Notes: generated by a model not told the origin, from the letters alone. A DNA stretch of 24,000 nt from Actinomycetes bacterium (GCA_025963185.1 JAOPVE010000407.1:1-24000), one strand, 5' to 3'. Positions 1,813 to 24,000 are shown, counted from the stretch's first letter. A program made the numbers and translations.

Positions 1813-1839
1813 CGTGAGAAGGAGAAGAGGAGAGCGCGC

Positions 1840-3221: not shown

Positions 3222-3294
3222 GCGAGCGGAGCGAGCGAACCAACAAGCACAGTGCGACCGGGTCAGGCCGGCTAGAGCGAAGCGAGGGCCGCGG

Positions 3295-4353: not shown

Positions 4354-4390
4354 CGTGAGCACTGGCCCGCTGACGTGAGCACTGGCCCGC
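4351..4390. repeat. perfect 20-bp tandem duplication (tgacgtgagcactggcccgc x2) at the hypE stop / downstream gene start
   Basis: 4351-4370 and 4371-4390 are identical. A third partial copy (cgtgagc) at 4391-4397 carries the GTG start at 4392. The first TGA is the hypE stop. Confidence 0.9.
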
Positions 4391-4391
4391 C

Positions 4392-6751: not shown

Positions 6752-6983
6752 CGAACTGCGGTAAGAGTGCCCGCCAATAGGCCGGGCGGAGCGAGGCGAG
6801 TGCCCGGGCCGCGTGGGGACGGCGCCGGTTCTCTGGCGCGCCGGTGTTGCACGTCGGGCTTTCGGATATACGCAGCCCGCTGATCGCGAGCCAGTGGTTC
6901 TGGTGCCGCCAGAGCCCGCATGGCCCTGTTGGCGGGCGCTCTCACTCCGGCCGGTCCGGACCGGCCGGGGTTACCGCAGTTCG
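6752..6983. repeat. long-range imperfect inverted repeat (about 30-bp arms) with an embedded 22-nt perfect palindrome; candidate structured RNA or MITE-like element
   Basis: cgaactgcggtaa (6752-6764) is the exact reverse complement of ttaccgcagttcg (6971-6983). The adjacent gagtgcccgccaatagg (6765-6781) pairs with cctgttggcgggcgctc (6925-6941); its only 2 mismatches are G-U wobbles on the + strand transcript. The perfect palindrome ccggccggtccggaccggccgg (6947-6968) is inserted in the 3' arm. Confidence 0.5.
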
Positions 6984-7052
6984 CGGGATGTGGTCCGCGG
7001 CGGGCCGGGGCGTGCCAGTATGTCGCCCGGCCAGGCCACGCCGTCGCCCGGC

Positions 7053-7087
7053 TCGCCCCCTCGCCCACCTCGCCCACCTCGCCCCGG
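7053..7087. repeat. 9-bp tandem repeat TCGCCCACC (2 perfect plus 2 degenerate copies) just upstream of the HAF-repeat gene
   Basis: Perfect units at 7061-7069 and 7070-7078. Degenerate copies at 7053-7060 and 7079-7087. The repeat ends 15 nt before ATG 7102. Confidence 0.7.
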
Positions 7088-7101
7088 AAGGCACCCCCGC
7101 T

Positions 7102-8154
7102 ATGCGCACCCGGATCCTCACGATCGCGGCACTGTCGCTCCTCGCCCCGCTCACACCCGCCCTCACCGGGCCGGCCGCCGCCGTCCCCGCCGGAGCGGCG
7201 AGTGCGCCCCGGTACACGATCACCGACTTAGGCACCCTCGGCGGGGACCGCAGCGCCGCGACCGCGATCAGCAACTCGGGCCAGGTCGTGGGCTACAGCG
7301 TCACCCCGCAGGGCGCCGAGCACGCGTTCCGCTGGTCCGCCGGATCCATGACCGACCTCGGCACCCTCCCCGGCGGCGGGTACAGCCACGCGAACGCGGT
7401 CAACGACGCCGGGCAGGTCGCCGGGCTCTCGGATCGCAGCAGCGGCGGCTACGGCTACCCGGTGCGGTGGAGCGCGTCGGGCGCGATCCAGGACCTGGGC
7501 GGCCCGATCACCAACCAGCTGGGGTCGGGCAACGCGATCGATCCGGCGGGGCGGGTCGCCGGCGGCCAGCGCCCGGCCAGCTCCGAGGGCGAGCCCGTGG
7601 CGATGCTCTACGACACCGCCGGACGGCCCCATCTGCTGGCCAAGGGGAGCCTGGGCGCGGCCGCGGGGATCAACGCGCGCGGCCAGATCGTCGGATCCCC
7701 CGCCTACATCTGGCAGAACGGCGCAGTGACCTCGCTGCCCGGCCTCGCGGGCGGATCGGCCTCGGCGCGCGCGATCAGCGTCTCCGGCCTCGTCGCCGGA
7801 TCCGCAAGCACGGTGGACGGATCCCTGCACGCGGCCCTGTGGCGGGGTAGGGCGATCACCGACCTCGGCACGATCGACGGGATCCGGTACAACCAGGCGA
7901 ACGCCGTGAACGCCGCCGGCCAGGTCGTGGGCACCGCGGATCCGCTGTGCAGCCCGTGCGTGGCCCCGCGCGCGTGGCTCTGGCGGGCCGGATCGGCCAC
8001 CGCGCTGGACTCGCTGATCCCGGCCGGATCCGGCTGGACCCTCCAGCAGGCCAACGGGATCAGCGACCGCGGCGAGATCGCCGGCGCCGGGCTGCACAAC
8101 GGGAAACTGCACGCGTTCGTGCTGGTCCCGGTGTTCCACGCGACCGCCGACTAG
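7102..8154 (+). CDS. secreted HAF-family extracellular repeat protein
   Basis: Start chosen at MRTRILTIAALSLLAPLTPALTG (signal peptide). It carries repeated units of the form HAFxW...xTDLGTLxG...AxAxNxxGQVVG (e.g. EHAFRWSAGSMTDLGTLPGG...NDAGQVAG) and ends KLHAFVLVP. Confidence 0.85.
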   Translation: MRTRILTIAALSLLAPLTPALTGPAAAVPAGAASAPRYTITDLGTLGGDRSAATAISNSGQVVGYSVTPQGAEHAFRWSAGSMTDLGTLPGGGYSHANAVNDAGQVAGLSDRSSGGYGYPVRWSASGAIQDLGGPITNQLGSGNAIDPAGRVAGGQRPASSEGEPVAMLYDTAGRPHLLAKGSLGAAAGINARGQIVGSPAYIWQNGAVTSLPGLAGGSASARAISVSGLVAGSASTVDGSLHAALWRGRAITDLGTIDGIRYNQANAVNAAGQVVGTADPLCSPCVAPRAWLWRAGSATALDSLIPAGSGWTLQQANGISDRGEIAGAGLHNGKLHAFVLVPVFHATAD

Positions 8155-8291
8155 GGCACCCTCGCCGTGGCCGCCGCCCCGGCCGCCGCCGCCCCGTGGG
8201 CCGGGGGACGGTCCGGGTGAGCGTCACCGACGCGCGCCTCACGATCGCCAACGCCCCCGGATCGTCCAGCAACAGCTCTGCTACCTCGACG

Positions 8292-8312
8292 TGACGGCCG
8301 CCTGAGCCGTCA
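8292..8312. terminator. weak hairpin between convergent genes
   Basis: tgacggc (8292-8298) / gccgtca (8306-8312), a 7-bp stem with a 7-nt loop and no U-tract. It overlaps the stop of the minus-strand gene. Confidence 0.3.
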
Positions 8313-8651
8313 GCCCGGTGCCCGGGTGGGCCACGGCGAGCCGCGGGTGATCCACCGGTACGCGCCGCTGATCAGGGCCGTGTTGACGAGCGCGCAGACC
8401 GCGCTGCCTCCGAAGTAGACGGCGGCGTTCGTCCAGCTCGGGCCGTCGCCGGTCATCAGGAACGCGAGCGCCCACGAGCACGGGCTGGTCAGCAGGAGCA
8501 GGGAGATCCCGGCGAACGATCCGCCGGGACCCTCGGTCGTCGCGAGCGCCCACACCAGGTAGCCGGTGGCGGCGGCGACCGCGGCGAGGTAGATCCGGGC
8601 GGCCCAGTTGCCGAACAGGAAACGCCAGAGGCTCTGGCTGTCAGTGGTCAT
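8310..8651 (-). CDS. small membrane protein (3-4 TM), unknown function
   Basis: Start moved to ATG 8651 (MTTDSQSLWRFLFGNWAARIYLAAVAAATGYLVW...). The hydrophobic segments begin immediately after it, and the upstream 52 residues of the track ORF are Arg/Pro-rich. Confidence 0.6.
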   Translation of the reverse strand: MTTDSQSLWRFLFGNWAARIYLAAVAAATGYLVWALATTEGPGGSFAGISLLLLTSPCSWALAFLMTGDGPSWTNAAVYFGGSAVCALVNTALISGAYRWITRGSPWPTRAPG

Positions 8652-8703
8652 GCGGGTGATCGTGGCGGAGCCGGCCGCCGCCGGCATGAGCACCAGTACT
8701 CGG

Positions 8704-9432
8704 TCAGGCCCGCTTTGCCCTGCCGCTGTAGGCGAACGAGACGCTGGCCGCCGCACACCCCGGATCGTCGGCGGCCAGCAACTGCGGCCACCCCGCCGCG
8801 TCGACATGCCGGCTCGCGAGCGTGATCGTCTCGTTCGGCTGGATCGTCAGCGCCGCCCCCGCGTACTGGGTGACCCGGATCGCCTTCGCCGCGTCGCACC
8901 GGCCCCTCGCCGTGCTGGCCGCCGCCGTGCCGTTCTTGGGGGTCACGTGCAGGGCACTCACGGCGATCGCGTACGGGTAGGGGTTGCTGATCGCCAGGTC
9001 CAGACGCGCGGTGCCGCCAGGGCGCAACTGCTGCGTCAGGTGGCCGGTGATGGCGAAGCCCTTGACCGTCTTGGCGACGTGCCACCGGTAGGACGCTGCC
9101 GCGCCTACCCGCCCGTCCGCGCCCAGCGGCTGCACGACCACGAGGTGGGTGCCCGCCCCGAGGTTGCGGAACGTCACCGGGTTCGCGCAGCGGTGCGGGG
9201 ACCTGCCGTCGAGCGCGCACTGGTAGGCCGCCGCGGGCTTGTGGTCCCGGAAGCTGAACGTGGCCCAGCCGACCGTCGTCGTCAGCGGGGGGCGGGTGCC
9301 GATCGCCGGGGCGGGCAGGGCCGCGGCCGGTGTGGCTGGGCCGGTCGACAGCGTGACCGCGATCGCGCCGCCCGCGACGGCCGCGACGGCCGCCGCGCCG
9401 AGCGCGAGGGTCCTGCGGGAGATGCGGGTCAT
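8704..9432 (-). CDS. secreted hypothetical protein
   Basis: 242 aa with an N-terminal signal MTRISRRTLALGAAAVAAVAGGAIA (RR-containing). The mature part is beta-rich with 4 Cys. It is co-directional with the small membrane protein downstream. Confidence 0.65.
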   Translation of the reverse strand: MTRISRRTLALGAAAVAAVAGGAIAVTLSTGPATPAAALPAPAIGTRPPLTTTVGWATFSFRDHKPAAAYQCALDGRSPHRCANPVTFRNLGAGTHLVVVQPLGADGRVGAAASYRWHVAKTVKGFAITGHLTQQLRPGGTARLDLAISNPYPYAIAVSALHVTPKNGTAAASTARGRCDAAKAIRVTQYAGAALTIQPNETITLASRHVDAAGWPQLLAADDPGCAAASVSFAYSGRAKRA

Positions 9433-9623
9433 GGCGGTGCCTCCTGGCGGGTCGGTGCCGGTCCGCGGTGGCGTGCACCGGCTGTTTCAGGATCCGCGAG
9501 AGCGCGGCGCACCCACATCGGATCCGCGGCCCGTCCCCGCTCGGTGGGCCGGCCGGCGTGCCGGCCGATCACCCGACACGCCAGTGCCTTGCCGCTGCCC
9601 GGCGGGGCCGGAACACTGGCGCG

Positions 9624-10013
9624 ATGAGGTTCGCCGGGAAGCTGTCACCGGAGGACTTCTGGCGCCGCCGCGCCGCCGGCGACGAGCGGGTCCGGGTGGC
9701 CGCGCACCTGCTGCCGCTCTACGGGATCGCCGGGTGGGACGGCCCGCTCATGACCGGCGGCTGGCAGTGGAGCGACGGCGAGCTCGAGTCCGCTGGGCTG
9801 AGCCACGGCACGCCAAACGAGTCATCGCTGCAGGTCGTGACGACCTCCGGGGACCCGGCCAGGATCGCCCACACGCTCCGGATGACCGGCGAGCTGGTAC
9901 TGGAGGGGCGCAACCTCGATCCCCCGGCGCTTCGGCTCGAACGGGTCACGGACGTCGAGCCGTACCTCGCCGGGCGGAGCGCCTATATCCGGAGGCTCCG
10001 CGGCGAGGACTGA
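9624..10013 (+). CDS. hypothetical cytoplasmic protein
   Basis: 129 aa from ATG 9624 (MRFAGKLSPEDFW...). High GC3 throughout and no recognisable motif. The track ORF's N-terminal extension from 9468 looks non-coding. Confidence 0.5.
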   Translation: MRFAGKLSPEDFWRRRAAGDERVRVAAHLLPLYGIAGWDGPLMTGGWQWSDGELESAGLSHGTPNESSLQVVTTSGDPARIAHTLRMTGELVLEGRNLDPPALRLERVTDVEPYLAGRSAYIRRLRGED

Positions 10014-10064
10014 GTGTGATCTGCTGACGCGCATTGTCCGGCCGGAAAGCGGGGGTATCGACAC

Positions 10065-14579: not shown

Positions 14580-15398
14580 GTGGGATCAGCCACCCTCGTG
14601 CTCGGCCCCCGGCTGGGGATCGCGCTGGCCGTCCTGACCCTCGTCGCCGCGGGCACCGCCGCCGCGACCGGGCTCGGCTACTCGCGCCAGATCGTGGTCG
14701 CGTCGGTGCGGGCGATCCTCCAGCTCGCGGCGGTGTCGCTCGTCATCGCCGCGGTCGTCGCCTCACTGCCCCTCGCGGCCACGTTCGTGCTGGTGATGCT
14801 GGCAATCGCCGCGCTGACCTCCGGGCGGCGCATCACCGGGCGACGCGGCTGGTGGGCCGCCGCGCCGATCGCCGCGGGAGCGGTCCCGATCATCGCCGGG
14901 CTGATCGCCGGGGGGCTCGTACCGCCGCGCGGGATCGCGATCGTGCCGATGGCCGGGATCCTGATCGGCGGCGCGATGACCGCCACCTCGCTGGCCGGGC
15001 GGCGGGCGACCGACGAACTGGCGCAGCGCTGGGGCGAGTACGAGGCCGCCCTCGCCCTGGGATTCCTGCCCCGGGATGCGGCGATGCTGGTGATCCAGCC
15101 CGCGGCGGCCCAGGCGCTGATCCCGGCGCTCGACCAGACCCGGACCGTCGGGCTGGTGACCCTGCCCGGCGCCTACGTCGGGGTCCTGCTCGGCGGGGCC
15201 AGCCCGCTCGCCGCCGGGGCGACCCAGGTCCTCGTGCTCGTCGGCCTGCTCGCCGCCGAGGCGATCGCGGTCGCGGCGACCGCCGAACTCGTGGCCCGCG
15301 GCCTCCTGCGCCGGGCACCCGCCCGCCCCCGCCGCCCCAACCCCCTGCGCACCCTGACCCGCCGTCTACCGAAGCGTGTGCCGCTAGACCGGCCCTGA
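14580..15398 (+). CDS. fetB: FetB/YbbM-family (UPF0014) ABC-type iron-export permease
   Basis: By eye it aligns with E. coli FetB. VASVRAILQLAAV matches SVGRAIIQLIIV. IVPMAGILIGGAM matches VIPIAGMIAGNAM. LIPALDQTRTVGLVTLPGAYVGVLLGG matches LIPTVDSAKTVGLVSLPGMMSGLIFAG. GTG start with SD GAGGAG 6 nt upstream. Confidence 0.8.
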   Translation: MGSATLVLGPRLGIALAVLTLVAAGTAAATGLGYSRQIVVASVRAILQLAAVSLVIAAVVASLPLAATFVLVMLAIAALTSGRRITGRRGWWAAAPIAAGAVPIIAGLIAGGLVPPRGIAIVPMAGILIGGAMTATSLAGRRATDELAQRWGEYEAALALGFLPRDAAMLVIQPAAAQALIPALDQTRTVGLVTLPGAYVGVLLGGASPLAAGATQVLVLVGLLAAEAIAVAATAELVARGLLRRAPARPRRPNPLRTLTRRLPKRVPLDRP

Positions 15399-15426
15399 CC
15401 GGCGCAACGGCACACACGTGCGCGGC

Positions 15427-15460
15427 AGGGTTGGTCAGCCGGGAGGGTTGGTCAGGCGGC
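15427..15460. repeat. 17-bp tandem duplication (agggttggtcagccggg / agggttggtcaggcggc) across a stop codon
   Basis: The units at 15427-15443 and 15444-15460 share their first 12 nt and 14 of 17 positions overall. The second unit contains the stop (tca, 15452-15454) of the minus-strand gene. Confidence 0.8.
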
Positions 15461-16171
15461 GGGGGTGGGCTCGGGGGTGCGGGCCGGCTGCGGGATGCGG
15501 GTCCGGCGGCGCAGGCGCAGGCCCACGACCACGGCGGCCATCAGGACGGCGAGCACCACGTTGGTGACGACGACTGCCCGCACGGTCAGGCCGGACGAGG
15601 CGGCGGGCTTGCCGATCCAGCGCAGTGAGCCGGTCACCGTGATCGGGGTGGTACCGGCGAGCAGGTGGACCGTCCAGTCGCCGATCAGGTGGGCGTGCAC
15701 CGGGTCGGCGGCCACGGCGGGAGGCTGCGCGCCGCCCATCCAGTGGATCCGGTGGTCGTGCCAGCGGACCGTGTGCTGCGCCGAGATCCGCTTCCAGGCC
15801 GGCGCCACCGAGGACTGGCCGGGCGTCGCCGGATCCCCGAACAGGCTCTTGTTGATCAGCGCTGACTGGGAGAGCTGGTTCTCGTCGGTGCCCGCCGCGG
15901 TGATCCGCAGGTAGGGCTCGCGCAGGTAGCCGAGGATCAGCACTGGCTCGGCGGCCGAGGAGGCGACCTCGATCCATTCCCCCCGCGGATCGACGCGCGC
16001 CCGCACCCCGGCGGCCGCGGGCTGGGTGCTGGTCAGCGTGGTCTGGTAGTAGGCCGCGTCGGGGATCGGCTGGCCGCCGGCCAGGTGCGCCGACGCCGGA
16101 TCGGCGGCGGCGAGCGCGCCCGCCGGGGCGGCGAGAACCGCGAGCAGCACGGCGATCCGCAGAGTCCGCAT
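15452..16171 (-). CDS. secreted, C-terminally membrane-anchored protein with predicted N-terminal His and a His cluster (candidate metal/copper-binding protein)
   Basis: Start at ATG 16171 (MRTLRIAVLLAVLAAPAGALAAADPASA|HLAGG), giving an A-S-A signal-peptidase site that would leave His as residue 1. Also seen: an internal RWHDHRIHWMGG cluster and DPVHAHLIG, plus a C-terminal TM helix VVVTNVVLAVLMAAVVVGL followed by RLRRR. Confidence 0.65.
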   Translation of the reverse strand: MRTLRIAVLLAVLAAPAGALAAADPASAHLAGGQPIPDAAYYQTTLTSTQPAAAGVRARVDPRGEWIEVASSAAEPVLILGYLREPYLRITAAGTDENQLSQSALINKSLFGDPATPGQSSVAPAWKRISAQHTVRWHDHRIHWMGGAQPPAVAADPVHAHLIGDWTVHLLAGTTPITVTGSLRWIGKPAASSGLTVRAVVVTNVVLAVLMAAVVVGLRLRRRTRIPQPARTPEPTPAA

Positions 16172-16511
16172 GACAATCCCCTCGCCGGGCTTCACTGGCA
16201 GCGCGCGCCGTACCAGCCGGCTGCGCGCCAGGACAGGAGCGGCGAACGGCGGCGCGGATACCCCCGGACCGCCCCGCGGCCACATTCCGGCCCGAACGGC
16301 TGATCCGGGAGCACCCGGTGCGGGTGGGCGGCGCTCCGGCGGGCGGACCGGGCGGACCGGGAGAACGGCCGGCCGCCGTAGTCACGCCCGGATGACGCCC
16401 CGATGACAGCGCCGTCATGGATCTCGGCGTTGCACCCCAGACACCGCACTCTCAGTCACCGAGAGGCCGGCCCCGACCGGACCGGACCGGAAGACCCGAG
16501 AGGGGAACCGC

Positions 16512-19500
16512 ATGTTACGTCGCCTGCCCCGGCGATGGTGGACCGTCGCGGCCACCGGGCTGCTGCCGATCGCCAGCTCACTGCTGGTAATCGCCGCACC
16601 CGCTGCCGCCGCACCTTCCACCGGCAGCGTCACGCTGCGGGTGGAGAGTGCGCGGACTGTCGGTGCACCACCGGAGATCCAGAAGGGCGACCAGGTCACG
16701 AGCTACAAGTGGCTGGTCACCGCCGACGACGTCGGCAACCCGCACGACGCGCTGCAGAACTGCCTGCCCTCCCGGGCTGGCGTGAGCAGCGCCCACAACT
16801 TCGCCGACACGTGCCAGTGGCCGTCGATCCGGTACACCCCAGGCGCCGTGCCGATCGTCGCGCAGGGTGACCAGTCGGACCTGGGCGCCGGCAAGGCACT
16901 GGGCGGGCTGCCCGCCGGGAAGTACCTCATCTCGGTGACCGCGGACGGGTACAAGATCGACGGCGCGCACTTCGCCGTGACCGGCGGCCAGACCAGCCCC
17001 GTGACCGTGAGTATGCAGCCCTACCCGCTCCCGCTCGGATCGGTCCGGATCCGCGTCTTCAACGACTCGATCCCGGTCGACGGGACCTACGAGGTGGGCG
17101 CCGAGCGCGGCCTGGCCGGGTTCACCGCGCACCTGGCGGACGTCCTCGGCGAGGTCTCGGTCGACTACTACGGCAACCGGCTGTGCACCCAGTACGTGCA
17201 CACCCCGCCGGACGCGACCCACCCCGCCGGCCAGATCGTGTTCGACAACGGCAAGCCGCGGATCGCGCCGAACTCGATCGGCAAGTGCCTCAGCGACGCC
17301 AGCGGCGACATCGTGATCCCCAACCTCGGCCCGGACCGCTACGCGGCGCAGGTTGTCCCGCCCACCGGCACCTCGTGGTACCAGACGACGACGCTCGAAG
17401 GCGCCCACGACTGGGACATCTGGGTCCAGGAGGGCGACACCGGCTACGACACCGAGCAGACCGTCGGCGGCGAGAAGGTGCCGTACGTGGACTTCGGGTT
17501 CGTCGCTCCCCGCGCGCTACCGGCGAGCAGGGCGACCGGCGAGATCACGGGCACCGCCGTCGGCGGGCTCGCCTACATCGGCGGCCAGGGCGGCACCGTC
17601 GTCCCCGAGACCGGGATGGCCGGCGCGAAGGTCAGCGGCCCGATCCGCGCGCCGCTGATCGCCCTGTCCGATCTCGGCGGCAACGACCAGATGGTCTACC
17701 TGGGCCGGTGGGGCGCCGACGGCAAGTTCGACGTCAAGAACGTGCCCGACGGCGACTACCAGCTCACCATCTGGGACTACGAGCAGGAGTACATCCTGTG
17801 GAGCTTCAACGTCACCGTGAGCGGCGGCAAGAAGGTCGACGTCGGGACGAAGATGCTGGTCGGCTGGTTCAGCTCGTTCACCGGATCGGTGTTCCTCGAC
17901 GCCAACGGCAACGGCAAGCGCGATCCCGGTGAGACCGGCGTGCCCAGGTTCACGATCGGCCTCAAGGAGCGCGACAACTCCCTGATGGACCAGGCCACCA
18001 ACACCGTCAGCACCGACGACCAGGGCAACTACACCCTCAAGGAGGGATACCCGCTGACCAAGTGGCTCGTGCTGGAGGCCTTCAACACCCGGTTCCGGAA
18101 CACTGGCGTCACCTACCAGGCCGACAACCAGCCGCAGCCGACGACGCTGCTCGGTGGCGCGGTGGACATGAACGTCCTGCCGGTGATCGGCCTCGGCGGC
18201 CGCCTCGACTGGGGCGTCCAGCCCTACGCGGCCGGCGAGAACGGCGGCATCGCGGGCACCATCACCTACGACACGACCCGCAACGAACTCGACGCGTCCA
18301 ACTCGGTGACCGAGGCCTACCAGCCGGGGATCCCGAACGTGCCGGTGCACCTGTACGCGGTGGTGCGCGACGCCAGTGGCGATCCGGTGAAGAACGCCGA
18401 CGGATCGCTGCAACGCGGTCCGGAACTCAACGACGCCTACACGTCCGAGACGTGGCAGGCCGGGCGGGGCTGCACCGCGCGGATGTGGAACGGCCAGCCG
18501 CTCACCACCCAGCAGGCCCTGCCGGATCCCGGCGCCGCGGCGAACGAGCTGTGCCTCGAGGCGCCGATGATGGGCACCCAGTTCGCGCCCAGCGACACCA
18601 CGGCGGGCAGCTTCGGCCAGACCGTCAACGGCAACTACGCGTTCAGCGACTCGAAGCTGAACCTGTACCCGCCGGGCGATCCGCGGAACCCGGGCCCGGA
18701 CCACGGCCTGGCGCTCTACGCCCCGCTCCCGGACGGGCAGACCCAGCCGCTGGCGCCGGATGACTACATCGTCAGCGCCGAGATCCCGCGGACCGCGGAC
18801 GGCAAGCCGATGTACCAGGTCACCAAGGAGGAGGACGTCAACGTCTTCGACGGCGACGGCTTCCTGCCGCAGGAGAACTTCCCGCCGTCCCCCGCGCAGG
18901 CCGCGGACCAGCCTGGACCCGCGGACACCACTCCAGCGCCGGCGGTCAACCCCTCCGGCGGGCCGGGCATCACGTCCGGGTGCGCCGGCGCGGACCACAC
19001 CGTGCACGTCACCGACGCGGGATTCCTCGCCGGTGGCGGCAGCCCCTACGAGGGCCAGCAGAAGCCGCTGTGTGACAGCAAGCTGGTGGAGGTGCGGGCC
19101 GGGCAGACCGCGGCGCCGAACTTCACCCTGTTCACCCCGGTGCCGCTGCCGACCCACTTCTGGGGCCTGACGATCAACGACCTGGGCATCTCGCACGACC
19201 CGCGCAGCGCCAGCTACGGCGAGGCCGAGCCACTGCCGAACGTTCCGGTCGGGCTGTACGACTACGCCGGGCGCCTGGTGGACACCGTCGACACGGACTT
19301 CAACGGCTTCTACGAGGCCATCGAGCCGTCGACGGGCACGTTCAACTGCCCGGTCCCGGCCGGACCATGCCCGGGCATGTACCGCTTCGTGGGCAACGAC
19401 CCGGGACAGCCGGGCCATCTCAACGCCAACTACAACCAGCGGTACCGGACCATCGCCACGAACTTCCAGGCCTGGCCCGGACTGTTCACGGTCACCGACA

Positions 19501-21647
19501 CCGCCCCGACCCAGGTGGCGATGACGGCCCTGGCCCCCGGATCCACCCAGGTCGGCGCGGTGGACTGCACCCCGCCGGCGGCGACGCCCCAGCTGTTCTC
19601 GGTGTCCAAGCCGTACCTGCGCAGCACGGAGACCAGCCGGAGCATCACGATCCGGGGCACCGCGTTCGGCACGGCCAAGGGCACGGTCAGGATGGCGACC
19701 GCGACCGGCGGATCCGTTCCGGCGACCGTGACGAGCTGGTCCGGCACCGAGATCCACGTGACGCTGGGGACCCCGTCCTCGCCGTCCACGGGCACACTGT
19801 CGGTCACCACGGCGGCCGGGACGTCCACGATCAACGGGCTGGCGTTCCAGTTCGCGGGCACCTCGGCGATCGGATCGTCGGGCAACCCGCGGATCCGCCA
19901 GGTCAACCCGCCCGCCTCCGCCGTGAGCCCGGGCGAGAAGACCTACACCACCGTGCAGGCGGCGCTGGAGGACGCGGCGAGCGCGGCCCGCGGATCCGAG
20001 TACGACGTCGTGGTGGTGTGGCCGAACGCGCCCGGCACGGACAACCCGTCCGGGGCGTACTTCGAGAACGTCGTGCTGCACTCGGCGGTCCGGCTGCAGG
20101 GGGTGGGTCCCGGCGGGACGTACGCCGACGGCAGCCACGTCCCGGGATCCGTGCTCGACGGCCGCAACTTCGCGATCGACAACCCCAGCGGCATCGCCTG
20201 GATGAGCCTGGTCGCGTCGATCCCGTACGCGGGGCCCGCCGAGGTTCCCGACGGCGCGGTGGTCACCGTGCTGGCCCGGCGCGGCCAGTTCGACAACCGC
20301 GGCGCCCCGGCGGTGAACGGCTTCACGATCACCGGCGGCAACCAGTCGGACTTCCCGGGCAACGTCAACGAGATCACCGGCGGGATCAAGACCCCGTACG
20401 GCGCCGACGGGGCCGTGGTCACCCAGGGCGGCGGTGTGTACCTGCACGCCGAGGCCAGGGACGCCAAGGTCACCGACAACGTGATCGCGGGCAACAGCGG
20501 CTCGTACGGCGGCGCGATCCGCGTCGGCACCCCGTACGCCACCACGAACAACATGGCCGTGACGATCGCCCGCAACCAGATCCGCGACAACGGCGGCACC
20601 AACCTCGCCGGCGCCGTCGCGCTCTTCTCCGGGAGCAACAACTACTCGGTCGACCACAACGCGGTCTGCGGGAACTTCTCCGCCGAGTACGGGGGCGGGA
20701 TCTCGCACTTCGGGCTCTCCCCCGGCGGCGCGATCACCGCGAACGCGGTCTACCTCAACGAGTCCTACGACGAGGGCGGCGGCATCATGGTGGCTGGCGA
20801 GCTCCCGGCGGACCCCGCGAAAGCCTCCCCCGGATCCGGTGCGGTCACGATCGACGGCAACACGGTCCAGGCCAACCTCGCCAGCGACGACGGGGGCGGG
20901 ATCCGGTTCCTGCAGGCCGGGAACTTCCCGATCAGCGTCACCAACAACGTGGTCGCCGGGAACATCTCGGCCCACGAGGGCGGCGGCCTGGCCCTGGACG
21001 ACGCGACCGACGTGCGGCTCGTCGACAACACGGTGATGGACAACATCACCACGGCGACCGCGGTCACCAGCGACGGCAAGCCGGCCCCGGCCGGACTGTC
21101 GACGGCGGCCAACAGCGACCAGCTCCAGGCCACCCTGCCGTCCGGATCGGCGGCGTTCAGCAACCCGAAGATGTTCGGAAACATCTTCTGGGACAACCGC
21201 GCCGGATCCTGGAACGGTGTCTCCGTCACCGGGATCGGGGCGGCCGGGGCACCGGCGGGCGAGGCGATCCGGTACTGGGATCTGGGCTCGCTCGACGCGG
21301 GCGTGGTCCTGACTCCGACGAACTCGGTGCTGCAAACCACGACCGGCACGGCGCTGTCCAGCACGAACAAGGTGGGCAGCAACCCGAACGTGGTCTCGCC
21401 GTTCCTGACCAGCGTCTCGATCGATCCGTCGCGGACCTACCCGGCGTTCCGGCAGGCCGTGATCGTGATCCAGCACACCGCGGGCGCCGCGCTCGGGGAC
21501 TACCACCTGACCGCGGCCGGACCGGCGCTCAACGCCGGCGCCACCAGCAGGACGTTCGGGACCACGACGGTCAAGGCGCCCGCGCTGGACATCGACGGCG
21601 ACGTGCGCAGCACGAAGACGCCGGACATCGGCGCCGACGAGCGCTGA
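16512..21647 (+). CDS. giant (1711 aa) secreted multi-domain protein with carboxypeptidase-regulatory/SdrD-B-like Ig folds, an IPT/TIG-like domain and a C-terminal right-handed parallel beta-helix
   Basis: Signal MLRRLPRRWWTVAATGLLPIASSLLVIAAPAAAA. GSVFLDANGNGKRDPGETGVPRF is an SdrD B-like motif (about 17880-17960). PQLFSVS...ITIRGTAFG...VTSWSGTEIHVTL is IPT/TIG-like (about 19590-19850). Periodic GGG(V/I)xh coils follow: GGGVYLH, YGGAIRV, GGGISHF, GGGIMVA, DGGGIRF, EGGGLAL (about 20300-21200). The C-terminus is DIDGDVRSTKTPDIGADE. SD GAGAGGGGAA lies upstream. Confidence 0.9.
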   Translation: MLRRLPRRWWTVAATGLLPIASSLLVIAAPAAAAPSTGSVTLRVESARTVGAPPEIQKGDQVTSYKWLVTADDVGNPHDALQNCLPSRAGVSSAHNFADTCQWPSIRYTPGAVPIVAQGDQSDLGAGKALGGLPAGKYLISVTADGYKIDGAHFAVTGGQTSPVTVSMQPYPLPLGSVRIRVFNDSIPVDGTYEVGAERGLAGFTAHLADVLGEVSVDYYGNRLCTQYVHTPPDATHPAGQIVFDNGKPRIAPNSIGKCLSDASGDIVIPNLGPDRYAAQVVPPTGTSWYQTTTLEGAHDWDIWVQEGDTGYDTEQTVGGEKVPYVDFGFVAPRALPASRATGEITGTAVGGLAYIGGQGGTVVPETGMAGAKVSGPIRAPLIALSDLGGNDQMVYLGRWGADGKFDVKNVPDGDYQLTIWDYEQEYILWSFNVTVSGGKKVDVGTKMLVGWFSSFTGSVFLDANGNGKRDPGETGVPRFTIGLKERDNSLMDQATNTVSTDDQGNYTLKEGYPLTKWLVLEAFNTRFRNTGVTYQADNQPQPTTLLGGAVDMNVLPVIGLGGRLDWGVQPYAAGENGGIAGTITYDTTRNELDASNSVTEAYQPGIPNVPVHLYAVVRDASGDPVKNADGSLQRGPELNDAYTSETWQAGRGCTARMWNGQPLTTQQALPDPGAAANELCLEAPMMGTQFAPSDTTAGSFGQTVNGNYAFSDSKLNLYPPGDPRNPGPDHGLALYAPLPDGQTQPLAPDDYIVSAEIPRTADGKPMYQVTKEEDVNVFDGDGFLPQENFPPSPAQAADQPGPADTTPAPAVNPSGGPGITSGCAGADHTVHVTDAGFLAGGGSPYEGQQKPLCDSKLVEVRAGQTAAPNFTLFTPVPLPTHFWGLTINDLGISHDPRSASYGEAEPLPNVPVGLYDYAGRLVDTVDTDFNGFYEAIEPSTGTFNCPVPAGPCPGMYRFVGNDPGQPGHLNANYNQRYRTIATNFQAWPGLFTVTDTAPTQVAMTALAPGSTQVGAVDCTPPAATPQLFSVSKPYLRSTETSRSITIRGTAFGTAKGTVRMATATGGSVPATVTSWSGTEIHVTLGTPSSPSTGTLSVTTAAGTSTINGLAFQFAGTSAIGSSGNPRIRQVNPPASAVSPGEKTYTTVQAALEDAASAARGSEYDVVVVWPNAPGTDNPSGAYFENVVLHSAVRLQGVGPGGTYADGSHVPGSVLDGRNFAIDNPSGIAWMSLVASIPYAGPAEVPDGAVVTVLARRGQFDNRGAPAVNGFTITGGNQSDFPGNVNEITGGIKTPYGADGAVVTQGGGVYLHAEARDAKVTDNVIAGNSGSYGGAIRVGTPYATTNNMAVTIARNQIRDNGGTNLAGAVALFSGSNNYSVDHNAVCGNFSAEYGGGISHFGLSPGGAITANAVYLNESYDEGGGIMVAGELPADPAKASPGSGAVTIDGNTVQANLASDDGGGIRFLQAGNFPISVTNNVVAGNISAHEGGGLALDDATDVRLVDNTVMDNITTATAVTSDGKPAPAGLSTAANSDQLQATLPSGSAAFSNPKMFGNIFWDNRAGSWNGVSVTGIGAAGAPAGEAIRYWDLGSLDAGVVLTPTNSVLQTTTGTALSSTNKVGSNPNVVSPFLTSVSIDPSRTYPAFRQAVIVIQHTAGAALGDYHLTAAGPALNAGATSRTFGTTTVKAPALDIDGDVRSTKTPDIGADER

Positions 21648-21654
21648 CTCAGCT

Positions 21655-21687
21655 CCGGGGCGGCGGCCTGCCATACCGCCGCCCCGG
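21655..21687 (+). terminator. perfect 12-bp-stem hairpin directly after the giant gene (terminator or attenuator)
   Basis: ccggggcggcgg (21655-21666), a 9-nt loop, then ccgccgccccgg (21676-21687). It begins 8 nt after the stop and ends 59 nt before the next start. Confidence 0.5.
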
Positions 21688-21745
21688 ATCCCGGCCCCGT
21701 CCTCAGCACTCGCCCCCAGCACCCATTTCCCGCAAGGAGACCACC

Positions 21746-23008
21746 GTGTCCGACCATTCACTGCGCCGCGCCGTCGGCCGGCGCGCGTTCCTCGCCGGGG
21801 CGGCCGGAGCCGCCGGCTGGGCTGCCCTGTCCGCCAGCCGTGGGCCAGGCTCGCCGCGCCTGGCCAGGGCGGCCGTGACCACCGCCGTCCCGAACCCGAC
21901 CACCAGCGTGCACCTGGCCGGCACCGACGGATGGGTGTCGATGCCGCAGGGCGCCCCGGCGATCCCGCCGTTCTGGCCCGACCCGCTGGCCCCGGCGAAC
22001 GCCAACCTCTACGCGTTCGGGTTCCGGGACGTCACCGGGATGACCGCGGCGCAGATCACCGCCCAGCGCGGGAAGGCCCAGATCTCGGCGCCGATGCTCT
22101 CCTTCGACCAGGAGACCGACATCAAGATCACCCTGACCAACCTCGGGCTCTCCCAGCGGCCGGATCTCGTCGACGGCCACACAGTCCACTGGCACGGGTT
22201 CCGCAACGCGATCCCGCTGTTCGACGGGGTTCCGGAGCTGTCCATCGCGGTGCCGATCGGGCGGGACTTCACGTACTTCTACCGCCCGCACGACCCCGGC
22301 ACGTACATGTACCACTGCCACTTCGAGGACGTCGAGCACGTCCAGATGGGCATGACGGGGCTGGTGTTCGTCCGGCCGGTGCAGAACAAGGGCACCAGGG
22401 ACCTGCCCGCGGGCAAGTACGCCTACAACTGCGGCGACGGATCGACGCGGTACGACCGCGAGTTCGGCTTCATGTTCACCGAGGTCTGGGCCGAGGCGCA
22501 CTACCGCGACGCGCACATCCAGACGACGGACTGGACCGACTACAACCCGACGTTCTTCGCGATGAACGGCCGGGCCTACCCGGACACGCTCGCGCCGAAC
22601 GGCGATCCGCTGAAGGTGCCCGCCGATCCGCGGCTGCAGTACCAGCCGATCTCCTCGCTGGTGACCTGCAACTCCGGCGACCGGGTGCTGCTGCGGCTGG
22701 CGAACCTGGGCTACCAGAACCACGCGATCACGGTCGACGGCATCGACCTCACCGTGATCGGCAAGGACGCCAGCCTGCTCCGGGGGCGCGACGGGACCGC
22801 CCAGTACACCGTCACCAACACCGTCGAGATCGGGCCGGGCGAGAGCCGGGACGTGCTGTTCACAGCCCCGAACCCCGGCACCTACCTGCTCTACGACCGG
22901 GACTACCGCGCGCTGACCAACGCCGGCGGCGGGCTCGGCGGGCAGATGACCGAGATCCGGGTCTCGCCCAAGGGGACGGTCCCCGCACAGACCAAGGCCA
23001 ACGCATGA
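21746..23008 (+). CDS. Tat-exported two-cupredoxin multicopper-oxidase-like protein (MCO-A): domain 1 has a full ligand set, domain 2 has none
   Basis: GTG 21746 with SD AAGGAGA 5 nt upstream. Tat motif GRRAFLAGAAGAAG. Domain 1 carries HTVHWHG (22178-22198) and HCHFEDVEHVQMGM (22313-22354). In domain 2 the equivalent positions read YQNHAITVDG and NPGTYLLYDRDY...GGQM, so the His/Cys ligands are lost. The first 790 aa or so of track ORF 19367..23008 are a shadow of the giant gene. Confidence 0.9.
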   Translation: MSDHSLRRAVGRRAFLAGAAGAAGWAALSASRGPGSPRLARAAVTTAVPNPTTSVHLAGTDGWVSMPQGAPAIPPFWPDPLAPANANLYAFGFRDVTGMTAAQITAQRGKAQISAPMLSFDQETDIKITLTNLGLSQRPDLVDGHTVHWHGFRNAIPLFDGVPELSIAVPIGRDFTYFYRPHDPGTYMYHCHFEDVEHVQMGMTGLVFVRPVQNKGTRDLPAGKYAYNCGDGSTRYDREFGFMFTEVWAEAHYRDAHIQTTDWTDYNPTFFAMNGRAYPDTLAPNGDPLKVPADPRLQYQPISSLVTCNSGDRVLLRLANLGYQNHAITVDGIDLTVIGKDASLLRGRDGTAQYTVTNTVEIGPGESRDVLFTAPNPGTYLLYDRDYRALTNAGGGLGGQMTEIRVSPKGTVPAQTKANA

Positions 23009-23049
23009 GGAGGCCGAGCATGAGGAGGCTGAGCGTGAGGAGCCAAGGG
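23005..23049 (+). repeat. three tandem in-frame 15-bp units, each carrying a start codon and an SD-like GAGGAG(G)
   Basis: atgaggaggccgagc (23005-23019), atgaggaggctgagc (23020-23034), gtgaggagccaaggg (23035-23049), then ATG 23050. The first ATG overlaps the MCO-A stop (ATGA). Confidence 0.85.
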
Positions 23050-24000
23050 ATGATCAGCCACGGCCGGTTACGGCGCGCACTGCCGGCGGTGCTGGGACTG
23101 GCGACGGCCGCCGTGCTGGTGGTGCCCGGACCCGGCAGCTCCGCCGCGACGGCCAGCGAGGGGCTGGACTGCCAGAGTTCGCCGGACAACGCCTTCGCCC
23201 TCACCGCGAACGCCGGGTACGTCACCACCCCCGACGGCAACTCGATCTACATGTGGAGCTACGCCAGCGACGGCGGATCGTTCCAGCTTCCCGGCCCGTC
23301 CCTGTGCGTCGACTCGGGCGCGAAGGTCACGGTAACCCTGCGCAACACGCTGCCCGAGGCGACCTCGATCATGTTCCCCGGCCAGAAGCAGGTACTCGCG
23401 GACGGCCAGCCGGCCCAGCCGGTCACCGACTCCGCCGGGACCCTGACCTCGATGACCAGCACGGCGGGCGCCACCGGCGGATCCGTCACCTACACCTTCA
23501 CCGCCGGCAGCCCGGGCACCTACCTCTACCAGTCCGGCACCGACGTGCAGAAGCAGCAGCAGATGGGGCTGTTCGGCGCGCTCGTCGTGCGCCCGGCGGG
23601 CCACCCCGACCAGGAGAACGACCGGCCGGACTCCCGCTTCAGCGCCAGCCACGAGTACCTGTACATGCTCAGCGAGGTCGACCCGGACGCGCACCTGGCC
23701 GTCGAGCGCAAGCGGCCGTTCGACTGGAGCACGTACAAGGCGCGGTACTTCATGATCAACGGCCGGAGCATGCCGGACACGATCTCGCCGAACCACGCCG
23801 CGTGGCTGCCGAGCCAGCCGTACGGATCGCTGATCCACATCCGGCCGTTCGATCCGGCGTCGAACCCGCAGCCCGCGCTGATCCGGTACCTCAACGCCGG
23901 GACCGTGAGCTACCCGTTCCACCCGCACGGCAGCGACGAGCAGCTCATCTCCCGCGACGGCCACCCGGCCCAGGGACCGAACGGCCAGGACCTGTCGTTC
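23005..24000 (+). CDS. second multicopper-oxidase-like paralog (MCO-B), 3'-truncated by window edge: domain 1 has no ligands, domain 2 carries HPHG
   Basis: Not in the ORF track because it has no stop in the window. I translated frame 1 by hand and it is open from 23005 to 24000. Possible starts are 23005, 23020, 23035 and 23050. Signal ...GRLRRALPAVLGLATAAVLVVPGPGSSAATA. Domain 1 reads TSIMFPGQ where MCOs have TSIHWHG, and GTYLYQSGTDVQKQQQMGLFGALVV where they have GTYWYHSH. Domain 2 has FMINGRSMPDT and YPFHPHG (23911-23931). Confidence 0.85.
   Translation, partial: MRRPSMRRLSVRSQGMISHGRLRRALPAVLGLATAAVLVVPGPGSSAATASEGLDCQSSPDNAFALTANAGYVTTPDGNSIYMWSYASDGGSFQLPGPSLCVDSGAKVTVTLRNTLPEATSIMFPGQKQVLADGQPAQPVTDSAGTLTSMTSTAGATGGSVTYTFTAGSPGTYLYQSGTDVQKQQQMGLFGALVVRPAGHPDQENDRPDSRFSASHEYLYMLSEVDPDAHLAVERKRPFDWSTYKARYFMINGRSMPDTISPNHAAWLPSQPYGSLIHIRPFDPASNPQPALIRYLNAGTVSYPFHPHGSDEQLISRDGHPAQGPNGQDLSF

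Follow-up and report, generated by a model that had tools for sequence, protein, structure and literature searches.

What do a giant secreted protein and the multicopper oxidase (MCO)-like genes encoded behind it make together? We addressed this question in a 24,000-nt stretch of DNA from an Actinomycetes bacterium (GCA_025963185.1, JAOPVE010000407.1:1-24000; the window), for which an earlier note had proposed that the giant protein partners the MCOs in an undescribed extracellular copper-oxidase system. The + strand carries the giant protein gene, a hairpin, MCO-A and then MCO-B, which runs past the window end (Table 1). These elements had all been claimed before, and we found every one of them, at coordinates that were exact or a few bases off. 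MCO-A is a Tat MCO-like gene as described, with its GTG start at 21746 and not at 21747. What was taken for an MCO pair, however, is a trio: the near-identical contig L001 carries a third MCO-like gene, MCO-C, as the next gene just past the position of the window end. Other loci encode an additional small membrane-anchored protein, which follows MCO-C in many genomes. The earlier note did not include the third paralog, the small membrane protein or a complementary loss of copper ligands. The window contains the first three genes of a conserved cassette (giant, MCO-A, MCO-B, MCO-C and, in many genomes, the small membrane protein), for which a hetero-ring oxidase is proposed below.

Table 1. Features of the window, numbered from its first nucleotide
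Feature	Position	Strand	Basis
Giant secreted protein gene, 1711 aa, ATG start	16512..21647	+	ORF and translation
N-terminal signal sequence of the giant protein, MLRRLPRRWWTVAATGLLPIASSLLVIAAPAAA	16512..16610	+	hydropathy; cleavage site inferred
IPT/TIG Ig-like domain of the giant protein, ~residues 1026-1112	19587..19847	+	AF2, Foldseek, PDB profile
Right-handed parallel beta-helix of the giant protein, ~residues 1125-1711	19884..21644	+	AF2
GC-rich stem-loop, 13-bp stem, 9-nt loop, without U-tract	21654..21688	+	fold prediction
MCO-A ribosome-binding site AAGGAG, 6 nt before the start codon	21734..21739	+	direct reading
MCO-A, 420 aa, GTG start, Tat signal	21746..23008	+	ORF, Pfam
MCO-A domain-1 copper-ligand motifs HTVHWHG and HCHFEDVEHVQMGM	22178..22354	+	codons read; 3g5w alignment; ortholog invariance
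MCO-B, 5' part only, ATG start	23020..24000	+	Pfam; full length from L001

Conservation of the cassette and its intergenic hairpin

Wherever a genome locus extended far enough downstream, as 66 did, the gene order was giant, A, B, C. Through MCO-B we reached 80 loci, and the giant gene was present in all 35 that had enough flanking DNA; in the remaining ones the contig ends before the giant gene could show. There were 160 related loci in total, and our statement of linkage covers only those with enough flanking DNA. Since the same gene order recurs in every informative locus, the arrangement is far beyond chance, and the synteny that the earlier note had asked about (MCO genes downstream of giant homologs) is conserved without exception where the DNA suffices. 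Three divergent loci have the order A-B-C-giant, and distant giant proteins, at 36-47% identity, still keep the MCO trio.

The cassette is spread over at least 325 species genomes from three or more phyla, and the giant protein forms 643 sequence clusters at E <= 1e-30. Hosts were found in Actinomycetota, Peptococcaceae and Dissulfuribacter (Bacillota and Desulfobacterota included); most are soil actinomycetes, and a sulfur-disproportionating vent bacterium is also represented. Strict anaerobes are among the hosts, which is odd for an O2-reducing enzyme and speaks against such a role. Every cassette component is annotated only by a generic name or as 'hypothetical', and we found no description of this giant plus split-MCO cassette in the literature.

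Direct support for the partner idea came from a fusion of giant protein and MCO in one polypeptide. P0367, a single chain of 3026 aa, joins a homolog of the giant protein, 29% identical over ~1650 aa, to a complete MCO of three domains that bears the motifs HLHGGH, HDHAHG, HSMHVH and HCHILAHEDNSMM; the chain also contains two TM segments. In another protein, P0269, the C-terminal module of MCO-C is borne on the giant protein. The proposed partnership in an undescribed extracellular system is also supported by the synteny and by the lack of a known family for the giant protein.

The stem-loop that separates the giant gene from MCO-A begins 7 nt past the giant stop codon. It had been described as a perfect 12-bp hairpin at 21655-21687; the hairpin stands, but its stem has 13 bp, with 21654-21666 paired to 21676-21688. 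A scan for U-tail terminators makes no call there because no U-tract follows. Tail-less hairpins are able to act in high-GC actinomycetes. Strong stem-loops of unrelated sequence were found at the equivalent site in 50 of 74 related loci (absent in 24), with a mean best dG of -28.3 kcal/mol compared with -19.3 kcal/mol for shuffles. We regard the stem-loop as a candidate partial terminator or transcript-stabilising hairpin. Attenuated read-through and unequal stoichiometry, as suggested in the earlier note, are plausible on the basis of gene order and fold only, with no transcript data. In our model the hairpin would lower read-through or stabilise the upstream transcript, so that the giant protein probably exceeds the oxidase.

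The giant protein

The giant ORF has a GC3 of 0.95, which marks it as a real coding frame, and a ribosome-binding site (GAGAGGGGAA) lies upstream. Its N-terminal signal sequence is the only part of the protein with a Kyte-Doolittle hydropathy >1.6. A motif and hydropathy scan of all 1711 aa detected no LPXTG-like motif, second hydrophobic segment or C-terminal anchor, in agreement with the previous claim that LPXTG or any obvious anchor is lacking. Pfam placed CarboxypepD_reg at residues 130-169 (E 6e-12) and SdrD_B at 459-510 (E 1e-11); NosD and Beta_helix both matched at 1443-1519, below threshold. AF2 and Foldseek assigned tandem CnaB/prealbumin-type Ig folds to the N-terminal part, and AF2 modelled residues 1020-1711 as an IPT/TIG domain and a long right-handed beta-helix reaching to DIGADE(R) (pLDDT 85.9, pTM 0.90). 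The protein is built of a signal peptide, ~1000 aa of CnaB/prealbumin-like Ig folds, the IPT/TIG domain, the beta-helix and a C-terminal DIDG...DIGADE cap. Pfam and AF2 thus bear out the modules that had been named from the sequence (Ig-like/carboxypeptidase-regulatory-like, SdrD-B, IPT/TIG and a beta-helix ending DIGADE).

The IPT/TIG domain was predicted as a beta-sandwich at AF2 model residues 8-96. Foldseek matched it to a CGTase domain and to the IPT/TIG of EBF3, a PDB profile search to the IPT/TIG of 8co1 (E 0.018), and PF01833 is a precomputed annotation in many giant orthologs. Apart from this domain, the PDB profile search with the giant protein found nothing. Foldseek returned only generic pilin-like Ig matches for the Ig part and only weak generic matches to GH28, DFA-IIIase and AlgG for the beta-helix (TM 0.19-0.34, 10-14% identity). 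No match to a well-characterised family was obtained from Pfam or NCBIfam, which gave generic folds only; domain annotation and Foldseek, the checks proposed beforehand, leave the giant protein outside any such family.

Full-length giant orthologs share 51-75% identity over 1700 aa across orders. A Cys-rich central region within the Ig-fold part is highly conserved, and for the most conserved N-terminal segment (residues ~880-1025) AF2 predicted no fold (pLDDT ~25). In the cross-phylum alignment the beta-helix is the best conserved segment, with invariant residues peaking at 1300-1500. It consists of stacked xGGG coils with D or E before each; C1386, D1420-E1421, D1459-D1460 and H1665 are invariant, as are the tyrosines Y1378, Y1393 and Y1664. 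The protein has no Met- or His-rich copper-binding tracts; its 1711 residues include 23 His and 19 Met. As judged from these searches and alignments, the giant protein is without a solved or characterised relative, yet its conservation is above that of most enzymes, and for this reason it likely holds new biochemistry.

Two known groups of proteins resemble parts of it. Tandem CnaB/prealbumin-like folds also make up MSCRAMM B-repeats and pilins (SdrD, TIE protein, SpaA-type pilins), from which the giant protein differs by its far higher conservation and its strict linkage to oxidase genes; a sortase-anchored MSCRAMM or pilin identity was rejected, as there is no LPXTG signal, C-terminal hydrophobic segment or pilin motif. 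NosD is likewise a right-handed beta-helix with PbH1-type coils that is encoded with a copper enzyme, but the giant protein is ~4x larger, has an Ig stalk in addition and lacks NosFY or NosL partners. Membership of the NosD family was also rejected, with PF05048 and TIGR04247 both below their thresholds.

Distribution of copper ligands over three paralogs

MCO-A matched Cu-oxidase_3, Cu-oxidase_2 and Cu-oxidase above the Pfam gathering threshold. It has two cupredoxin domains, with the type-1 site in the N-terminal one, and its closest PDB matches are the two-domain MCOs 3g5w (E 1e-17) and 2zwn (E 2.5e-16). Domain 1 has the full type-1 copper set and four trinuclear-cluster histidines, in motifs that align to HTIHWHG and HCHVNVNEHVTMRGM of 3g5w. 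Across 72 orthologs there is no variation at H145, H148, H150, H190-C191-H192, H198 or M203, and the type-1 ligands (H145, C191, H198 and M203, aligned to 3g5w) are all in one chain. The motifs were also found in Dissulfuribacter, Peptococcaceae and other distant copies. In domain 2 the ligands are lost, with HTH and HDH of 3g5w replaced by TVD and YDR. The Tat motif reads GRRAFL in the window (GRRAFLAGAAGAAG); 70 of the 72 orthologs have the pattern RRx[FL..][L..], typically as LSRRALL.

The ATG of MCO-B at 23020 sits 11 nt past the MCO-A stop codon, which is overlapped by a GGAGG. Full-length MCO-B, taken from L001 (7490-8818), has 442 aa and a Sec-type signal peptide. Cu-oxidase_3 was above the Pfam threshold in both MCO-B and MCO-C. 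Compared with 2zwn, MCO-B has lost the domain-1 motifs (HTIHWHG to TSIVFPGQ, HCH to ESG) and kept both domain-2 HxH motifs: domain 2 begins within the window, where HPH is encoded at 23920-23928, and HSH follows past the window end. Conservation of H301, H303, H410 and H412 extends over 66 orthologs. MCO-C has no copper ligands left and also carries Ig repeats and a C-terminal domain of no assigned family. The type-1 ligands (His, Cys, His, Met) are absent from MCO-B and MCO-C. In Actinomycetota both look Sec-dependent, unlike the Tat-type MCO-A. The subunits of a mixed ring would thus have to meet and take up copper extracellularly, a plausible but unusual route that counts against such a ring.

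Across phyla, the orthologs of each of A, B and C share 30-37% identity, with 24-32% between paralogs, and the Peptococcaceae trio consists of minimal two-domain proteins of 332, 384 and 336 aa. At the level of sequence, these comparisons showed A, B and C to be ancient paralogs of two-domain multicopper oxidases. Among the matches listed there were no A-B or B-C fusions; each of the three is a gene in its own right, with a separate start codon and signal peptide.

The eight cluster histidines are divided between two of the paralogs: HWH and HCH are only on A, HPH and HSH only on B, and C has none. The set of four HxH motifs is complete only as A plus B, and no single gene product supplies all of it. 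The same split was found in loci with 44-69% GC. With this ligand content, no chain is able to form the trinuclear cluster as a homo-oligomer, and there is at most one active site per A-B-C set. Because the copper ligands are split over two proteins, the predicted oxidase probably works only as a mixed complex.

In two-domain MCOs the trinuclear cluster is built by residues of two protomers in a trimer, and the type C class is defined by two cupredoxin domains with an N-terminal type-1 site (PMC13151041). MCO-A shares this architecture, together with the spacing HxxHxH and HCHx5Hx4M, with the type C enzymes 3g5w (Nitrosomonas europaea blue copper oxidase) and 2zwn (metagenomic mgLAC), which are also among the best matches of the MCO-B profile. 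Known type C MCOs are homotrimers in which each chain gives both cluster halves, with three active sites, whereas in the cassette the halves are on two proteins.

We propose that A, B and C would assemble outside the cell as an A-B-C ring of pseudo-threefold symmetry, resembling the homotrimers that two-domain MCOs form. A single trinuclear cluster would form at the interface between domain 1 of A and domain 2 of B, wired to the type-1 copper of A, and the remaining two interfaces would be catalytically dead; the four ligand-less domains are exactly those that fall at the two non-A/B interfaces of such a ring. Electrons from the substrate, which may be a metal ion or a phenolic group bound to a surface or polymer, would enter at the type-1 site of A, and O2 would be reduced to water. 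The giant protein would be a physical partner of the oxidase, possibly a scaffold or substrate-presenting subunit, and the small protein may serve as its membrane tether. On balance we lean towards this explanation as a whole, a linked cassette encoding an A-B-C hetero-ring oxidase with a giant partner, the ring being inferred from ligand bookkeeping alone.

Other readings and known copper oxidases

The putative ring can be likened, by inference, to six-domain MCOs such as ceruloplasmin and Bacillus MnxG, with six cupredoxin domains and a single cluster between the first and last ligand-bearing domains; the oxidase would be their unfused, single-site counterpart. Both of these six-domain enzymes oxidise metal ions. 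Ceruloplasmin keeps extra type-1 sites, whereas in the cassette only MCO-A has one, and MnxG partners the small MnxE and MnxF, whereas the cassette oxidase is linked with a 1700-aa beta-helix protein. Six-domain MCOs (6dMCOs) are monomeric, single polypeptides (PMC13151041), in contrast to the six domains spread over three genes here. We would give an even chance to the more specific reading that A, B and C, the products of three tandem paralogs, form an obligate heterotrimer with six cupredoxin domains, one type-1 site and one cluster, in an unrecognised extracellular machine with the giant protein and the tether, and that this is an 'unfused' living intermediate linking the homotrimeric two-domain MCOs to six-domain oxidases made of one chain, such as ceruloplasmin.

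Copper resistance or homeostasis is a doubtful alternative. The MCO complex would be a cuprous oxidase detoxifying surface Cu(I) and the giant protein would bind or sequester copper, under the control of the adjacent two-component system and with CopC-CopD supplying or balancing it. A CopC-CopD fusion is found downstream in 26 of 55 long loci, and also in L085; a divergent OmpR-type response regulator is present in 43/55 loci and a histidine kinase in 39/55. The top NCBIfam match of A and B is copper_res_A, far under its cutoff, and acidic residues in HCHFEDVEH beside the type-1 His are conserved. However, CopCD and the two-component system are missing from part of the loci, the regulators vary (OmpR, NarL/GerE with HisKA_3, CHASE5 hybrid kinase), and the window itself has neither upstream. 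The giant protein also lacks the Met- or His-rich tracts. Nor does the presence of CopC-CopD mean resistance, since it is tied also to copper supply for cuproenzymes (for example PMC8689200).

In copABCD-copRS/pco, as in many cassette loci, an MCO, CopC/CopD functions and a two-component regulator share one neighbourhood. CopA/PcoA is a single three-domain MCO, whereas the cassette has three paralogs and a giant protein without cop/pco counterpart, and no CopB-type protein was recognised in cassette loci. Identity with a cop/pco operon was rejected (copper_res_A 44 bits against a cutoff of 479, CopC-CopD in only 26/55 loci, varying regulators).

A role of the giant protein as the substrate of the oxidase is unlikely; it would then be an abundant protein of the surface or a sheath, cross-linked or matured oxidatively, for example by Tyr coupling, and kept in excess by the hairpin. 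The strong intergenic hairpin in 50/74 loci fits unequal stoichiometry, and the pilin/MSCRAMM-like Ig stalk and the invariant beta-helix tyrosines are in line with this role. Yet 51-75% full-length identity is atypical of purely structural surface proteins, as is the conserved acidic/GGG ladder of the beta-helix, and a sorting signal or wall anchor is missing. The 1:1 fusion with an MCO in P0367 suits a complex better than an enzyme with bulk substrate.

Slightly less likely again, the beta-helix would be a polysaccharide or polymer enzyme (lyase, hydrolase or epimerase) or a binding module, with the oxidase as redox auxiliary, for example in lignocellulose or humic breakdown. Its top Foldseek matches are indeed carbohydrate-active beta-helix enzymes (GH28 exopolygalacturonase, DFA-IIIase, AlgG), but these matches are weak (TM 0.19-0.34, 10-14% identity) and the giant protein matched no CAZy-type Pfam family. 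Invariant D/E pairs on successive coils, and the Ig repeats and unassigned C-terminal domain of MCO-C, would be compatible with it. The mostly soil actinomycete hosts also agree, although the cassette occurs in the sulfur-disproportionating vent bacterium as well, and the neighbouring genes are not carbohydrate-utilisation loci.

Finally, a NosD-like maturation factor bringing copper to the extracellular interface cluster is very improbable: a heteromeric cluster formed after export could, by inference, need a chaperone, and weak NosD Pfam matches exist (giant protein E 1.5e-4, distant homolog P0332 E 6.4e-4), but PF05048 reached 21.8 bits against a gathering threshold of 23.6, no better than the generic Beta_helix match, TIGR04247 reached 17 bits against a cutoff of 300, NosD was absent among the best 50 Foldseek PDB matches, no NosFY-type transporter is nearby, and the giant gene heads the cassette and probably has the highest expression, an unusual situation for a chaperone gene.

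Few metalloenzymes have been studied as well as the multicopper oxidases, and to our knowledge the accepted view is that every active MCO consists of one gene product, either as a monomer or as a homo-oligomer. A long-standing model derives the six-domain oxidases from trimers whose ancestral chains had two domains. If the preferred reading, an A-B-C hetero-ring with a giant partner, is true, this split-ligand family, in which the third paralog is free of ligands, would be the first MCO to be hetero-oligomeric in nature, and it would offer an experimental handle on the origin of six-domain oxidases from two-domain trimers. That anaerobes carry the cassette also prompts one to ask which function a copper enzyme that reduces O2 has in such hosts.

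The gene cassette and its neighbours

The gene for the giant protein, a predicted secreted protein at the head of the cassette, was picked out as a real gene by a frame-specific GC3 filter (GC3 0.95; the GC content of the window is about 73%). The other elements described in the earlier note, a hairpin and the genes for the MCO-like paralogs MCO-A and MCO-B, were all found as well, and their description was right except for one-base details. An exact-protein look-up of MCO-A led us to a near-identical contig of 9.8 kb (L001, GCA_030840975.1), on which the order is giant gene, MCO-A, a complete MCO-B (442 aa) and then a third Cu-oxidase_3 gene, MCO-C. The "pair" of MCO genes proposed earlier thus stands as far as A and B are concerned, but it is not the whole set. 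In related genomes, MCO-C is a protein of about 950-1130 aa that combines a pair of cupredoxin-like domains with several Ig-like repeats and a C-terminal domain without an assignment. A 99%-identical MCO-A carries a Cryptosporangiaceae label.

Features of the cassette in the window, and copies of the small protein encoded after MCO-C at related loci
Feature	Position	Strand	Description
Giant gene	16512-21647	+	1711 aa; one hydrophobic segment, N-terminal
Stem-loop	21654-21688	+	13-bp GC-rich stem, 9-nt loop; begins seven bases past giant stop (RNA fold)
AAGGAG site	upstream of GTG 21746 (MCO-A start)	+	from sequence
MCO-A	start 21746 (GTG)	+	420 aa; GRRAFL Tat motif; three Cu-oxidase Pfam matches
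MCO-B	start 23020 (ATG), runs past window end	+	11 nt beyond MCO-A stop; GGAGG overlapping MCO-A stop
~160-aa protein, locus L003	20848-21354
~160-aa protein, locus L083	12395-12892
~160-aa protein, locus L084	26752-27345
~160-aa protein, locus L085	21926-22420

The hairpin between the giant gene and the MCO genes is real, with a stem longer than the perfect 12 bp (21655-21687) first reported, and only 57 nt separate it from the start of MCO-A. It was not listed by a consensus terminator scan because there is no U-tract behind the stem. At related loci, the 70 nt after the giant stop contain one strong hairpin (dG <= -25 kcal/mol) in 50/74 cases, with stems of unrelated sequence; the mean best dG after the giant stop was -28.3 kcal/mol compared to -19.3 kcal/mol for shuffles. 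The simplest reading, which is untested, is that the hairpin allows read-through with attenuation or stabilises the 3' end of the upstream message, though it is not universal. A sigma-70 promoter scan of 15300-24000 returned zero sites, which is uninformative for a genome of 73% GC.

Several further genes recur beside the cassette. Following MCO-C, a protein of about 160 aa is encoded in 30/55 long loci (roughly every second actinomycete locus); distant phyla have it too. It carries a TM helix at its N-terminus, matches no Pfam family and lacks conserved His, Cys or Met residues; it may be a membrane tether. A CopC-CopD fusion lies downstream in 26/55 long loci. Upstream, a divergent OmpR-type response regulator is present in 43/55 loci and a histidine kinase in 39/55. 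No such regulator/kinase pair was found by tblastn over the window, where its usual place is taken by an ORF divergent from the giant gene (15452-16285, minus strand) that had no Pfam match in either candidate frame. The intergenic region 16286-16511 contains short direct repeats, CGGACCGGGCGGACCGGG and GACCGGACCGGACCGG, and a GATGAC...GATGAC pair.

Elsewhere in the window, positions 1-5111 carry hydrogenase maturation genes, namely hypF (truncated at the 5' end by the window edge), hypD and an AIR-synthase-related gene resembling hypE. A DUF6390 gene comes next, and none of these looks connected with the oxidase cassette. The region 6941-10020 (about 3 kb) has no ORF passing a GC3/GC2 coding filter. 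Its overlapping long ORFs on both strands gave no family matches, and its sole Pfam match is DUF7942 (8310-8807, minus strand).

Conservation of gene order

Full-length orthologs, which align along about 100% of the giant protein at 51-75% identity, were found in many actinomycete genera, all of them generically named. We scanned one genome per species; 325 species had a relative of the giant protein and 80 loci were kept. Seven of the 80 end immediately past the giant gene, and in all 73 others the next gene is MCO-A. Loss of synteny between the giant gene and the MCO genes had been named in the earlier note as a finding that would refute a common system. The opposite was observed: in all 66 giant-based loci that extend far enough, A, B and C follow one another in this order and on the same strand, and the association held when retrieval was based on MCO-B. 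Of the 80 metagenome loci retrieved by alignment to MCO-B (29-73% identity), 35 had a detected giant gene, and it was never missing where flanking DNA sufficed. In the three most divergent loci (L165, L167 and L168; MCO-B identity 29-35%), the order is A-B-C-giant, and therefore the association of the giant gene with the trio survives rearrangement. Locus L154 was considered as a counter-example, having 1.25 kb upstream of A and no giant match, but was rejected as this stretch contains the giant C-terminal cap followed by extra repeats.

The family extends far beyond close relatives. A HMMER all-against-all search with the N-terminal 992 aa of the giant protein gave 643 sequence clusters at E <= 1e-30, spanning about 1100-3364 aa in length, and the distant giants looked up (36-47% identity) have the same trio downstream. 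The cassette was also found in a Peptococcaceae MAG and in Dissulfuribacter thermophilus, and loci with 44-53% GC are included. The full cassette thus occurs in strictly anaerobic lineages (Dissulfuribacter-type L083, GC 44%; Peptococcaceae MAG L087, GC 48%). This is odd for an O2-reducing enzyme; it may point to scavenging of O2, or to a function where oxic and anoxic zones meet.

Copper ligands divided between two of three paralogs

In two-domain MCOs, the trinuclear cluster is made of residues from two protomers of a trimer, and the classes differ by the domain bearing the type-1 copper, which in type C is the N-terminal one (PMC13151041). Type C enzymes are the closest known to A, B and C. 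However, while one chain of a type C enzyme gives both halves of the cluster, this is not so for any of the three paralogs. In MCO-A, residues H145, H148 and H150 (HTVHWHG) and H190-C191-H192, H198 and M203 (HCHFEDVEHVQMGM) are invariant in 72 orthologs, all in the N-terminal domain. They align with HTIHWHG and HCHVNVNEHVTMRGM of the two-domain MCO from Nitrosomonas europaea (3g5w), whereas the second-domain motifs of that enzyme are lost from MCO-A (HAIHTHG is replaced by NHAITVDG, and HDH by YDR). MCO-B is the reverse. Across 66 orthologs, conservation of HxH motifs is limited to H301/H303 (HPH) and H410/H412 (HSH), both in the C-terminal domain; in a profile comparison with the metagenomic two-domain MCO 2zwn, both second-domain HxH motifs are retained and the first-domain HTIHWHG and YHCH have become TSIVFPGQ and YESG. 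The 61 MCO-C orthologs have no Cys and no HxH motif.

The same division (HWH and HCH in A, HPH and HSH in B, none in C) was seen in distant loci, the Dissulfuribacter-type and Peptococcaceae ones among them; in Peptococcaceae (L087), A, B and C consist of two domains only, at 332, 384 and 336 aa. Each of the three is orthologous across phyla at 30-37% identity, compared to 24-32% between paralogs, so the triplication must be old. Leftover histidines (H326 of A; H69, H117 and H221 of C) were considered as extra metal sites, but not all are conserved across phyla and we make no claim for them.

If A, B and C formed a cyclic trimer, domain 1 of A would meet domain 2 of B at an interface containing the complete set of eight cluster histidines, together with the Cys-His bridge that leads to the type-1 copper of A. 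The remaining interfaces (B domain 1/C domain 2 and C domain 1/A domain 2) would consist of exactly the four ligand-less domains. Since no homo-oligomer of A, B or C could build a cluster, the predicted assembly is an obligate heterotrimer with one active site. We infer from the sequences that A-B-C is a functional analogue of a six-domain MCO distributed over three genes, the assembly and its catalysis both being inferences. A heteromer of A and B, with or without C, with a single interface cluster appears probable on this evidence. One complication is export: the Tat motif of MCO-A is present in 70/72 actinomycete orthologs while B and C look Sec-dependent, and therefore assembly of the trimer and copper loading would take place outside the cell.

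The acidic residues that separate HCH from the second type-1 His in HCHFEDVEH (MCO-A residues 194-198, window 22325-22339) are conserved. E197 also occurs in the type C enzymes 3g5w and 2zwn; E194 was present in 5/5 MCO-A sequences inspected by eye (window, L083, L084, L085 and L087) and is missing from both structures. These residues may form a cation-substrate site, which is untested.

The giant protein and its relation to the oxidase

Pfam matches of the giant protein above threshold were CarboxypepD_reg (residues 130-169) and SdrD_B (459-510); NosD and Beta_helix matches, both at 1443-1519, fell below it. AF2 modelling of residues 1020-1711 (34-sequence alignment) gave an IPT/TIG domain and a long right-handed beta-helix (pLDDT 85.9, pTM 0.90), and residues 34-1025 were modelled moderately (pLDDT 62) as tandem CnaB/prealbumin-like sandwiches. 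The domain make-up proposed earlier (Ig-like modules, SdrD_B, IPT/TIG and beta-helix) was upheld by Pfam and AF2. The lack of an LPXTG anchor was likewise borne out, as no LPXTG-like motif was found in a scan of the 1711-aa translation and the only hydrophobic segment is N-terminal. A very conserved Cys-rich stretch (about 880-1025) received no AF2 prediction, and hence no fold could be assigned to it.

A match to a well-characterised family with an unrelated role would also have counted against the original proposal, and no match to a well-characterised family was found. Pfam and NCBIfam gave generic fold matches only. A PDB profile search with the full-length alignment found no relative, the sole match being an IPT/TIG domain (E 0.018). 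In Foldseek comparisons with the PDB, the beta-helix model drew only weak, generic carbohydrate-enzyme matches (GH28, DFA-IIIase and AlgG; TM <= 0.34), and the N-terminal model resembled pilins, SdrD B-repeats and TIE protein with very low TM. Identification as NosD was rejected: PF05048 was below threshold, TIGR04247 scored 17 bits versus 300, and Foldseek also counted against it. The beta-helix is retained in 77/78 long giant representatives. In a cross-phylum alignment, invariant residues are densest in its coils 1300-1500; the invariant positions include stacked D/E-GGG turns, C1386, D1420-E1421, D1459-D1460 and H1665.

Two gene fusions connect the giant protein to the oxidase directly. 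The giant homolog P0367 (3026 aa; L082, 487-9567) shares 29% identity with residues 56-1703 of the window protein, in an alignment that takes in the terminal DIDG...ADVGADE cap. The giant part is followed by two hydrophobic (TM) segments and then a complete, conventional three-domain CotA-like MCO, which keeps all four ligand motifs (HLHGGH, HDHAHG, HSMHVH and HCHILAHEDNSMM). A second homolog, P0269 (L088, 954-7310), ends in the Ig-repeat and terminal module typical of the C-terminal end of MCO-C (30% identity, E 1.6e-35), a case of module transfer between subunits within the cassette. By Rosetta-stone-type arguments, these fusions indicate that giant protein and oxidase act in one assembly. 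L082 is a metagenome contig of 56% GC, on which LRR proteins, an IPP transferase and a radical SAM gene are among the neighbours of P0367.

Several roles are possible for the giant protein: it might serve as a scaffold, present the substrate or be the substrate itself, act on a polymer as an enzyme, or help the oxidase mature. The fusions lead us to favour a scaffold or physical partner, though we give no specific role better than an even chance. That the cassette encodes a functionally coupled multi-gene oxidase system we consider very likely, and the initial reading of an extracellular copper-oxidase system is both supported and sharpened.

The system is not a six-domain MCO, a cop/pco operon, NosD or a sortase-anchored adhesin. 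Our literature search found no description of hetero-oligomeric MCOs or of the giant-MCO gene combination; subscription journals were thinly covered, and this absence is not proof. The Nmar_1354 "heterotrimer" was rejected as a precedent, since it arises by proteolysis of one archaeal gene product. We rate the split-ligand A, B and C proteins as a variation on two-domain MCOs, coupled with a partner protein whose kind is unknown.
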